Below are positions 60,684-64,000 of a stretch of 64,000 nt of DNA, in pieces; within the stretch, counting starts at the first letter, position 1, and each line of letters begins with the position of its first letter. The position numbers and the translations under genes were made by a program. The notes under the pieces are model-generated. The model ran no database searches. It saw only the letters and a list, made by a program, of their open reading frames with translations, and was not told the origin of the DNA. This stretch comes from an uncultured cyanobacterium (GTDB lineage Bacteria > Cyanobacteriota > Cyanobacteriia > Cyanobacteriales > Cyanobacteriaceae): assembly GCA_963710605.1 (NCBI GenBank), contig CAVQBA010000005.1, positions 64,001 to 128,000 of the forward strand, given 5' to 3'.

Positions 60684-60872
60684 TTAATCTTTCCATTGTG
60701 TGCGACGATATCGCTTCCAATTTTTCATTCTTTTGCGAGTGTTAAGGGATTCGTAACACCATCGGTTCGATTTTAAACACCATTCACATAATCTTAATTC
60801 AGGATATATTTTTACTGCTCTATATCGAAAACTTTCAAATTGAGGATAATCATATTGATCGTATTGTAGTCC
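60684..60872 (-). pseudogene. 3' part of a small basic host gene interrupted by the IS/intron insertion
   Basis: GLQYDQYDYPQFESF...CEWC...KNWKRYRRTQWKD*; exactly 63 codons starting at the inferred IS end. Confidence 0.55.
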
Positions 60873-60873
60873 T

Positions 60874-63216
60874 ATCGGGTAAGGTTTGAGGGTCACCCCT
60901 CGCACCTCCCCTAGAACCGTACGTGTCAGTTTCCCAACATACGGCTCAAGCCTCACTTCAAGCCTTTGACTTGGTTTTTGAATGTACCTGTTTGTGACAA
61001 GCTTTATGCAGATGTACAAGGTTGTCAGCGGAATCATTACCGCCATCTGATACTGGTACGATGTGATGGGTTTCCAGCTCTTCTCCATTGAATAGATATT
61101 CTCCACAAATTTGGCATTTCCAATTTTGATTTACAGCTACTTGATAGTATTTACTACCTTTTGCCCAGTAATTTTTGCCCTGTTTTAATTTGCGGTTGTT
61201 CCAGTATTCACGGAGTGAGGGATTATCTGGACTAGCGTTGCCTCTGACTTTGACGTGTCTGATGATAGGGGTTCTAGCTATATTGTATAGGATACGAGTT
61301 TCTCTTTTCCTTTTCTTCCAGTTCCTTTACACATGAACCACCGTTTACTTCCTCTGAAGCGATGAAAATATTTGTTTTAATACCATCTTTTTGATTTGTT
61401 GGGATGTCTTCTTTTAGCCCAACGATAAAGGTAATGCCATACTCGATTTTCGATGTATGAGAAGGTTTCTTTGCTAACTGCACCTCTGTAGTAATTAGCA
61501 AAACCTCTGAGAAGTGGATTCAATTTTCTGATAACATTTTCTTGAGTCCGACGCCTTCATTTCTGATAGTGTTTTCCCTATCTTTTTACAGAAGGCAAGT
61601 ACTTTTTCTTTTTGAGGTTTAATCAATAACTTCCCTTTGTATTGGCGAAGGTTGAATCCTAAAAAGTCGAATCCGTCTTCTATATGAACTATCCTTGTCT
61701 TCTCAGCACTGATTTCTAGTTTTCTTTCGGATAACCATTGTCTTTATCTGGATAGATATAGTTTCTAAAGATTCTTTATCTTTTGCAGTGATTACAAAAT
61801 CATCTGCATATCTTATAAATCCTAGTTTTTTATTTTGGAACTTAACAAACTCTTCTAAACCATGTAAACCAATGTTGGCTAATAATGGACTAATCACTCC
61901 ACCTTGTGGTGTTCCAGCCTCAGTTGAGTTATAAACTCCCTTTATCTATGTATCCAGCTTTTAACCATTCTTTATTATAGCTCATTGGGATGAGATTCAA
62001 TCATAGTTTAGAATAGATTCATGAGAAATGTTATCGAAGAAACCTTTTATATCAGTGTCTAGAACCCATTTGTCTCTATTTAATTTACCACCCATGAGTC
62101 TTTTAAAACATTGCTCGATGGCATCCTGACAGCTTCGACCACATCTGAACCCATAGGTGTTAGGTTCAAATATGGCTTCCCATTCGGATTCTAGTGTATT
62201 TTTGACTATTGCTTGTGCAACTCTATCTCTCACATTTGGGATTCCGAGAGGACGTTTCTTGCCATTAGATTTGGGTATGTAAACCCGTTTTGTTGGAGCT
62301 GCTCTTGGCATTTTCCATTCATTGACAAGTTTTACTCGCTGTGCAGGGGTGTTTATCACCTCTTTGTCTATCCCTGCGGTTTGCTTTCCGTATTGACTTG
62401 AGTAATTTGTCTTACACTTAACAATAGGTTTGACAGACTCTTATTATCAATTTTTGCAGCCTTCTTAGCTGTTTCCATTGACCAAGTTTTCTGGCACGGA
62501 AAATTCGGCCTCGCAAATTCTTAACAACTTTATAGAGCTTTACGCCAGTTGACCTGACTCCAGTCCTTTAATTGTCTATTGTCTCCATTTATCAAAATTG
62601 CTTTTGACATCTAACTTTTAACTCCGTTTAGAATCGTTGTGTTTTCGTTTTGTCCGTATAAGACCTAGAGCAACGTCTGCTTTTACTTTCGTTCAGGGGC
62701 AAATTTTGAACCCCTATCTCAATAATTACAATCAAGCATTCGCTTCTTGCTCCATCTTTTACCCTCCAGAGATTTCCGTTTTTGTTACCTCAAACCTACT
62801 CATTGTTTGAGACTCTGTTGGGCTTACCCTGTTGTATCTTTTGGAGTTTTAATGTGGTTAGGATGGTTGACTATTGTGCGATGGAGGTTTTATTTCTACT
62901 TCCTTGTTAAAGTCAAGAACAAGGAATTATCCATTTACCATTTTGGTTCAAAGTCTATCAGGGATAATTTGACTTTTTCGGGAGTAACGCACTTTAATCA
63001 TCAACTTAGGCTACGTTCATCCTTCCACATCTTTCCCTCTAGCTCCTTACCGCTTAATCCCTAGCAGTTACGGCTACTTTTTAGGGTCTGCATTCCAACT
63101 GTTTCGTTACCTACTCGGTTGTGACCAAACTCTTTTGAGTTTTTTCTATGAGGGCAGGTGGTAGAAAACACCTGGGAGCTACACGCTCTGTTCCAATCGA
63201 CCAGTTCAGGTCGCAC
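60874..63216 (-). mobile_element. Group II intron (probably IIB, chloroplast-like class)
   Basis: 5' end GTGCG at 63216; domain V GAGCCGTATGTTGGGAAACTGACACGTACGGTTC at 60947-60914; domain VI ending CCCGAT at 60874; internal RT-maturase-HNH remnants. Confidence 0.93.
60958..62610 (-). pseudogene. ltrA: Intron-encoded reverse transcriptase/maturase/HNH, multiply frameshifted
   Basis: MSKAIL...DWSQVNW; RVYIPKSNGKKRPLGIP, YGFR.GRSCQDAI, DIKGFFDNI, GTPQGGVISPLLANI, RYADDF, GFDFLGF, HHIVP...NLVHLHKACHKQVH, spread over different frames. Confidence 0.9.
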
Positions 63217-63400
63217 TGACATACTCCCGTCGCGCATGGGCGAGGGATTCTCCTCAACTCAACAAGTCTTTGAGAGAAGGGAGCGTTTTATCCTGACTGC
63301 CGCCCACAGCCAGCTTTTTAATTAGCAACGCAGAATTGTAGTCTCGGTCGCAGCTTAAACCACAGCTATCACATTCGTGCCAACGGTCACTTAGAGTTTT
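63217..63400 (-). ncRNA. IS200/IS605 right end / predicted TnpB omegaRNA (reRNA) scaffold; 5' boundary approximate
   Basis: After the tnpB stop: GAGAATCCCTCGCCCATGCGCGACGGGAGTATGTCA, a subterminal hairpin plus TCA(A) terminus. Overlap with the tnpB 3' end is assumed from family knowledge. Confidence 0.6.
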
Positions 63401-64000
63401 ACTGACTCTATTTAGACATTGACTACAATGCTGGCTAGTTCCTCTTGGATTAACTTTGACAATTCTAGTGCCGTACTTTTGGGCGACTATTTCTACTATT
63501 TCTAGGAAGTTCCCGACGGCATTGTCACTCCAAGATTTATTCATTCCAGAAGAAGAAGATTGTCCGTTCTTGACGAAAATACCGTCAACTTTCTTTGGCT
63601 TATTTCTACGCAACATGTTGCGGATTTTTAAATCCTCAATGGCTAAAACACTACAACTACTAGCTAATTTATGTGCCTGGTTATAGTGCCAATCTTTTCT
63701 AGCCCGCGCTATTTTTTGATGAAGTCTAGATATTGCCCGTCGCACGAGTCTTTTCGCCTTCACTGAACGGGTTTTATCTTCTAGTTTTCTCTGTAATTTA
63801 GCTAGTTTAGATTGAGATTTTCTAAGATGTCTTTGAGGTAAGGCTTGGTTTTCATTTGAATCTACATATAGTTTTTCGAGTCCAACGTCTATTCCAATTG
63901 TGTTTGAAAGAGTAGCAACTGTATCTATCTCTATTTCAGGAATAGATTTGTCTTCCACTGACAAGTTTACGTAGTAGCCATCTGCTTTTCTAGTTACAGA
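63254..64000 (-). CDS. tnpB: IS200/IS605-family RNA-guided endonuclease TnpB (5' end outside window)
   Basis: RuvC-I GIDVG, RuvC-II AIEDL, Zn finger CSQC/CDSC, RuvC-III DRDYNSA; frame open to the window edge (SVTRKADGYYVNL). Confidence 0.95.
   Translation of the reverse strand, partial: SVTRKADGYYVNLSVEDKSIPEIEIDTVATLSNTIGIDVGLEKLYVDSNENQALPQRHLRKSQSKLAKLQRKLEDKTRSVKAKRLVRRAISRLHQKIARARKDWHYNQAHKLASSCSVLAIEDLKIRNMLRRNKPKKVDGIFVKNGQSSSSGMNKSWSDNAVGNFLEIVEIVAQKYGTRIVKVNPRGTSQHCSQCLNRVSKTLSDRWHECDSCGLSCDRDYNSALLIKKLAVGGSQDKTLPSLKDLLS

Follow-up and report, generated by a model that had tools for sequence, protein, structure and literature searches.

A group II intron interrupts the right end of a tnpB-bearing IS605-group element in an uncultured cyanobacterium

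The DNA considered here, referred to as the window, is a stretch of 64,000 nucleotides from an uncultured member of the Cyanobacteriaceae (positions 64,001 to 128,000 of contig CAVQBA010000005.1, assembly GCA_963710605.1), and near its far end a group II intron of 2343 nt lies downstream of an intact tnpB gene, in the same orientation as that gene. The coordinates of the intron, of the insertion sequence (IS) end that it interrupts, and of the exon-binding sites (EBS) and intron-binding sites (IBS) through which the two would pair are given in Table 1. The tnpB stop-to-stop frame spans 436 codons, ends in a stop codon at 63256..63254 and continues outside the window to the window-equivalent position 64564; it has no internal stop, its D..E..D motifs are visible, and it matches the solved ISDra2 TnpB chains 8H1J/8BF8 (phmmer, E about 5e-24). 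Just outside the window, a divergent frame on the opposite strand encodes a transposase of the IS200-like Y1_Tnp family (E 4e-35). The presence of both a Y1 tnpA and a tnpB identifies the element as an IS605-group member of the IS200/IS605 family, and its subterminal right-end hairpin, with a foot matched to the terminal tetranucleotide, is of the kind found in that group.

Table 1. Positions in the window of the intron, its pairing segments and the interrupted right end of the IS element.
Feature	Position	Strand	Basis or detail
Group II intron	60874..63216	minus	5' GTGCGAC to 3' ...ACCTTACCCGAT
Domains V and VI	60879..60949	minus	Rfam RF00029, model positions 1-77 of 77, 53.4 bits
Intron-encoded protein remnant (RT ... 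HNH), pseudogene	60961..62610	minus	tblastn, Pfam
EBS2, TACTCCCG	62979..62986	minus	intron nt 231-238; 8/8 complement of exon -13..-6
EBS1 hairpin	62900..62926	minus	EBS1 TGACTT at 62915..62910, intron nt 302-307, within 9-nt terminal loop
EBS1 hairpin stem	62926..62918 / 62908..62900	minus	TTCCTTGTT / AACAAGGAA
EBS1 hairpin loop	62917..62909	minus	CTTGACTTT
Candidate EBS3 (T, intron nt 344)	62873	minus	faces first 3' exon base A
First 3' exon base (A), inferred last IS base completing TCAA	60873	minus	homolog alignment and GAAT-foot loci
IS right end = intron 5' exon	63217..63250	minus	foot, hairpin, IBS2, IBS1, first three bases of TCA|A
Foot GAAT	63250..63247	minus	sequence reading
Right-end hairpin	5' arm CCCTCGC 63246..63240, loop CCATGC, 3' arm GCGA(C)GGG 63233..63226	minus	sequence reading
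IBS2 CGGGAGTA	63229..63222	minus	complement of EBS2
IBS1 ATGTCA	63222..63217	minus	faces EBS1
First three bases of terminal TCA|A	63219..63217	minus	foot/terminus match
tnpB 3' part	63257..64000	minus	OrfB_IS605, Cas12f1-like_TNB, HTH_OrfB_IS605 (Pfam)

Both ends of the intron are well defined. By sequence reading, the upstream exon ends in ...CGGGAGTATGTCA, 37 bases beyond the tnpB stop, and the intron follows directly with GTGCGAC; the 3' splice site was placed after ...ACCTTACCCGAT by alignment with six homologs, the flanks of all seven introns parting ways directly after ...ACCC(G/A)(A/C)T. The intron has the 5' GUGYG of group II (here GTGCG), a catalytic domain V over the full RF00029 model (cut-off 40 bits), and a domain VI, with a bulged branch A read by eye, followed by a 3' end in AY at the junction shared with the homologs. 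Domain IV holds a reverse transcriptase (RT)/maturase/endonuclease (HNH) protein, though the gene is broken here. Group II is the sole family that Rfam gives above threshold in the window, and the search gave no sign of a group I ribozyme combined with the IS into a single unit, as in an IStron. IStrons are reportedly chimeras of a group I intron and an IS605 or IS607 element. The intron is probably of the group IIB, chloroplast-like (CL) type with an open reading frame (RT-maturase-HNH), the CL label leaning on the nearest solved chain, 6ME0_C.

The decay of the protein gene is plain. The intact 555-aa protein of homolog L060 aligns with the intron of the window in three pieces in frames 1, 3 and 1 (tblastn), with two frameshifts and 11 in-frame stops. 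Pfam recognizes RVT_1 on three of the protein fragments and HNH on the last; GIIM has no Pfam match in this decayed copy, whereas homologs carry RVT_1, GIIM and HNH, and the related frames of L059, L060 and L063 are open. The best solved relative of the remnant is the maturase reverse transcriptase in 6ME0 chain C (E 7e-26), which we take to come from the F4 intron group of Thermosynechococcus elongatus. Any splicing of the present copy would need a maturase supplied in trans.

The 5' exon of the intron is the right end of the IS, as the preliminary description of this DNA had proposed, and part of IBS2 falls in the 3' arm of the subterminal hairpin, IBS2 spanning the bulged C and the GGG of that arm plus the adjoining AGTA. 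In IS608, the foot tetranucleotide base-pairs with the cleavage tetranucleotide. A matching relation is found in the genome to which the window belongs, where flanks were read at 22 tnpB loci and the foot could be matched to a terminus in 21: 9 combine a GAAT foot with TCAA and 11 a GAAG foot with TCAC, and the one odd locus is a spurious match of the regular expression within another intron, the true end there reading GAAT...TCAA. The covariation is real, because the regular expression left both last bases free. At locus L059, a foot GAAA goes with TCA|T. Three tnpB elements of the same genome (57-59% protein identity) have uninterrupted right ends, ...GGGAGTATGTCAC or ...GGAAGTATGTCAC, after which the sequences diverge. 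From the GAAT foot, the exon end TCA and the A that follows the intron, it follows that the intron splits TCA|A, leaving a single IS base on its far side.

Two segments of domain I are complementary to this exon. The preliminary description had located both, together with the stem and loop that carry one of them, on the minus strand, and our reading of the sequence agrees. The loop 6-mer TGACTT forms five of six pairs with the last exon bases ATGTCA, leaving a T.T mismatch at exon position -5, and upstream in the intron TACTCCCG is a full 8/8 complement of exon CGGGAGTA. In this copy alone such complementarity is modestly unlikely and constitutes weak evidence: 3.2% of 2000 dinucleotide shuffles gave an 8-nt Watson-Crick complement between the last 20 exon bases and the first 400 intron bases. 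Homologs were therefore collected for comparison.

Relatives at 69-90% identity occur in 9 of 20 genomes of the family, counting that of the window, and, among 401 genomes sampled from the order, in 58 at E values up to 1e-20. The sample used here comprises 50 loci, the intron of the window included, with a mapped 5' junction and at least 25 exon bases; it is no census, because only two candidates per genome were scored in the order-level search. For the covariation analysis six truncated or misaligned introns (L064-L068, L180) were removed and duplicates collapsed, which left 42 non-redundant homologs.

It is the comparison among these homologs that decides the matter, and it identifies intron nt 231-238 and nt 302-307 as EBS2 and EBS1, the assignment and order given in the preliminary description. 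The EBS1 columns pair with the last six exon bases of their own locus at 6/6 positions in 27 homologs, 5/6 in 9, 4/6 in 2, 3/6 in 3 and 2/6 in 1; hence at least five pairs form in 36 of the 42, a level that non-cognate intron/exon pairings attain in 6.2% of cases. The longest duplex of the EBS2 region averages 5.8 bp with the cognate exon and 4.3 bp with non-cognate exons, and a run of 8 bp, as in the intron of the window, is attained by 1.5% of non-cognate pairs. In an RNAalifold consensus of domain I from 18 sequences, compensatory changes occur at 55 of 80 pairs, and both segments lie in loops: EBS2 is unpaired, in an internal loop, with the conserved CTGCG strand of a helix directly on its 5' side, and the terminal loop of a hairpin with a covarying stem holds EBS1. 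A further contact is probable at nt 344, a column that pairs with the first 3' exon base in six of the seven introns with a mapped 3' junction (five of these pairs being Watson-Crick). The assignment of EBS3 to this column is tentative, since a second column also scored 6/7.

The closest homolog, L045/L058, lies in another genome (85% identity), downstream of a tnpB recognized by Pfam, at the same position in a related IS. Its exon ends in ...GGGAGTGTCA|, its 3' exon starts with C, and the foot is GAAG; its EBS1, TGACAT, pairs 6/6 with its own exon, and the EBS2 core is the same as in the intron of the window. Like the latter, this copy is decayed. The small lineage formed by these two introns thus uses the right-end terminus of the IS as its site. 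Suitable targets are available in the genome of the window, where the exact 12-nt target GGGAGTATGTCA occurs four times, always at a tnpB right end, and where seven right ends match when one mismatch is allowed. Because diverged tnpB elements keep a conserved right-end terminus, a genome provides several near-identical target sites.

Of the 50 genome loci of the clade, 19 involve tnpB or an IS200/IS605 end; in about 9 the intron is within or next to another group II intron, and the remaining 22 have other targets. The IS-related loci fall into three kinds. Eight have a tnpB coding sequence upstream on the same strand (the window, L058, L061, L068, L149, L150, L160 and L167; two of these introns are inside the reading frame), six have a right-end terminus motif with no reading frame found (L059, L067, L152, L148, L169 and L151), and five sit in a left-end-like hairpin, GGACTCCCGTT (L062, L063, L064, L066 and L153), of which an empty copy lies upstream of tnpB in the genome of the window. 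Introns with EBS1 TGAACT (L059, L067 and L152) follow ...GGGGTAGTTCA|, and those with ACATCC or ATATCC (L148, L169 and L160) follow ...GGAGGATGT|, each the right-end terminus of another IS subgroup. Right-end termini are thus read by different EBS1 sequences (TGACAT, TGAACT, ACATCC), which makes IS ends a recurrent but non-exclusive target. The wider clade is not specialised on tnpB. Finally, a search for the junction pattern in 185,579 species genomes gave 77 matches with one true intron locus (L115); the other 76 were rejected as chance matches to unrelated sequence without intron continuation.

Taken together, we consider it probable that the right end of an IS605-group element received a group IIB intron of CL type by retrohoming, that the target of the intron was chosen by base pairing, and that the copy decayed later. 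In this account, the intron would have inserted by retrohoming in the tnpB orientation, the target being picked by RNA-DNA pairing of EBS2 TACTCCCG with CGGGAGTA, including the 3' arm of the right-end hairpin, and of EBS1 with (A)TGTCA; one more pair, between the candidate EBS3 T344 and the last base of the IS, would probably have contributed. After insertion, the protein gene would have become a pseudogene and EBS1 would have gained one mismatch. We infer both the retrohoming pathway and this order of events.

The EBS1 mismatch deserves separate comment. The preliminary description had read it as a trace of an ancestral target ending in AAGTCA, and this finds no support: of the 21 termini of right ends that were read in the genome of the window, not one ends in AAGTCA, and the EBS1 of the sister intron L045/L058 has the A that matches TGTCA. 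Because the protein gene is decayed, the sister intron has the matching A and no AAGTCA end was found, the mismatch would most simply be a later A-to-T substitution in a decaying copy.

Several observations weigh against the account given above. EBS1 of the window's own intron pairs at only 5/6 positions. Only one of the four exact GGGAGTATGTCA sites is occupied, by the window's copy, and the other three are empty. The exact site and specificity are common to only two loci, the window and L058, both decayed. Of the 19 IS-related genome loci, 11 were assigned from sequence motifs without a tnpB reading frame. An independent metagenome sample, drawn with an 18-nt intron-start seed, gave 80 loci, many of them GC-rich coding sequence; 25 were intron-like beyond the seed (blastn), 6 were too short to judge, and only 2 of the 25 were IS-related (one L058-type right end and one left-end-like hairpin). 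In addition, no second DNA-level copy of the host IS was found in the other contigs of the genome or in 19 other genomes of the family.

These same figures bear on a stronger claim made in the preliminary description, according to which the intron lineage is specialised on tnpB elements, the multicopy right end is its regular landing pad, and the EBS1 mismatch records an ancestral AAGTCA target in a related IS. The use of the same site in a second genome speaks for such specialisation, as do the 19 of 50 clade loci at IS200/IS605-related positions and the conservation of the terminus across diverged tnpB elements. On the other hand, 31 of the 50 genome loci and 23 of the 25 metagenome loci are not IS-related, and each genome has one filled site, without proliferation: the genome of the window contains 12 domain V matches but a single copy of this intron, its nearest paralog being 66-70% identical. 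The landing pad survives in part, in that all four exact targets are tnpB right ends, while the IS itself is single-copy and one site in four is filled; the expectation that homologs would sit at IS right ends likewise holds for L045/L058 and fails for most of the clade. With the AAGTCA target unsupported as well, we regard the full claim as unlikely.

It is also tempting to speculate on what the intron's position might mean for its host. At its widest, the conjecture would be that the clade has evolved at least three EBS1/EBS2 specificities for the last 10-13 bases of IS200/IS605 right ends (some for the left-end-like hairpin), and that insertion in TCA|N disables TnpA cleavage and splits the TnpB guide-RNA scaffold from its guide by a 2.3 kb ribozyme, with DNA mobility lost and RNA-guided homing made dependent on splicing. 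We consider this quite unlikely; if true, it would amount to the group II form of the conflict between intron and guide RNA described for IStrons. A related suggestion, which concerns the intron of the window, is that it sits between the tnpB guide-RNA scaffold and the guide, splits the TnpA cleavage tetranucleotide, blocks IS excision and makes guide attachment depend on splicing, as a group II counterpart of the IStron conflict. The single base between the intron and the IS end, the shared orientation, the intactness of tnpB and the recurrence of three EBS1 specificities at right-end termini would all fit; moreover, in the available parts of two published accounts, the guide begins at the right-end boundary (PMC10055086) and an intron/guide-RNA conflict exists in IStrons (PMC10690162). 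Against it, the intron's own maturase is dead, the cleavage role of the foot and terminal tetranucleotides would be taken over by analogy from IS608, and the scaffold region matched no Rfam model. Indeed, even at permissive thresholds, Rfam returned no guide-RNA family in the 5' exon region or in three related IS copies, a sub-threshold snoRNA match being taken as noise. Such functional coupling is, in our judgement, very unlikely.

Group IIC introns insert after terminator hairpins or attC sites, without EBS2, reading the hairpin as a structure. The intron of the window is likewise inserted just 3' of a hairpin; unlike group IIC, it pairs with IBS2 through EBS2 over 8 bp and carries an HNH domain, and some insertions of its relatives are in coding sequence where no hairpin is present. 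A IIC-like target read as structure was considered and rejected, both for the EBS2 pairing and because relatives use targets that lack a hairpin. The attC association of group IIC introns is described in the available part of PMC7923331. A composite unit of IS and intron was also considered and rejected, no second copy having been found in its support. Least credible of all, and to us extremely improbable, is a chance juxtaposition, in which the IS transposed to a place beside an intron already present, or the complementarities arose by accident: the shuffles do yield an 8-nt complement now and then, but the complementary segments are precisely the columns that covary with the exon in the 42 homologs, a second genome shows the same arrangement, and the last IS base lies beyond the intron, so that the IS end is interrupted rather than abutted.

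Several further features of introns and tnpB elements were noted in the same genome. At G000:C4:1257356-1260110, another group II intron, which belongs to a different lineage and starts with GTGCGATTCGTTC, interrupts the 3' tail of another tnpB (31% identical), and the right end of that element (GAAT foot ... TCAA) lies about 100 nt past the intron. Five domain V matches cluster in C5:11-30 kb, and twintrons occur at about 7219 of G000:C2 and about 26622 of G000:C5, one intron lying after base 19 of another and one in the reverse-transcriptase frame of its host intron. At G000:C7:155679 (minus strand), the terminus GGGAGTATGTCAC is joined directly to tnpB C-terminal-like coding sequence without a hairpin, which could represent a deletion derivative. 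At G000:C6:490531 (minus strand), TGTCAA is followed by a short hairpin element, GGACTCCCGTT ... AACGG.GAG, situated upstream of a tnpB. At L062, L063, L064, L066, L153 and L236, in other genomes, the GGACTCCCGTT hairpin stands beside unrelated genes, with a clade intron in its loop each time; it could represent a left end, or else an element of the palindrome-associated kind.

Two more 5' exons of introns of this clade recur among the metagenome loci (L192, L209, L215, L220, L232, L248, L253, L259 and L267; also L191, L217, L244, L263 and L264), the first ending in ...GAGTAGCAA..GATAC and the second consisting of a GC hairpin followed by ...GCAAGCTTCG and one base (A, T or G). In the window itself, the frame 3' of the IS end (60684..60873, minus strand) would encode a short Cys- and Trp-rich C-terminal peptide with its stop at 60684, and the IS may have landed in or beside a small gene there.

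A residence of cyanobacterial introns in IS elements is not unprecedented: published work already describes how IIB introns of cyanobacteria home into elements of the IS200 family. In T. elongatus, according to the available text, CL/IIB1 introns form EBS-defined families that insert at a conserved site of ISEL1, an IS200-family element, or in other introns (Mohr 2010, PMC2882425), and Mohr, Ghanem and Lambowitz name such insertion as a mechanism of proliferation. The F4 introns in ISEL1 thus resemble the present case in being cyanobacterial CL/IIB1-type introns in an IS200-family element; they differ in their number, three copies being present in the IS within a single genome, and in that their mobility was assayed (PMC2882425), whereas the intron of the window is represented by one decayed copy per genome. 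RT-HNH group II introns have also been reported in IS605 elements of Anabaena and Nostoc, including PCC 7107 (Kapitonov, Makarova and Koonin 2016, PMC4810608), which is the same phylum, the same kind of intron protein and the same family of host element. That paper gives the introns one sentence and a supplementary figure (S9), and its available text offers neither an EBS/IBS analysis nor an insertion position.

IStrons offer another comparison. They combine a group I intron with a tnpB transposon, and a conflict between intron and guide RNA has been described for them in the accessible portion of Zedaveinyte 2023 (PMC10690162). There, as here, the end of a tnpB transposon and its guide RNA have sequence in common with a self-splicing intron; the IStron ribozyme, however, is of group I and part of a transposon that moves as DNA, while in the present case a group II retroelement has invaded and interrupted the end. 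A limited literature search returned no paper on a group II intron at an IS right-end terminus, or on one tied to the TnpB guide RNA.

The locus documents at single-base resolution a tendency already known for cyanobacterial introns, that of residing in other mobile elements, and it provides a clean, well-controlled case of the retargeting of a group II intron through changes in EBS1 and EBS2. Only the exact position, within the terminal tetranucleotide and at the switch from TnpB RNA scaffold to guide, is possibly a new aspect. If that position were to affect IS excision or TnpB targeting, the finding may join two fields, the study of retroelements and that of RNA-guided transposon nucleases.

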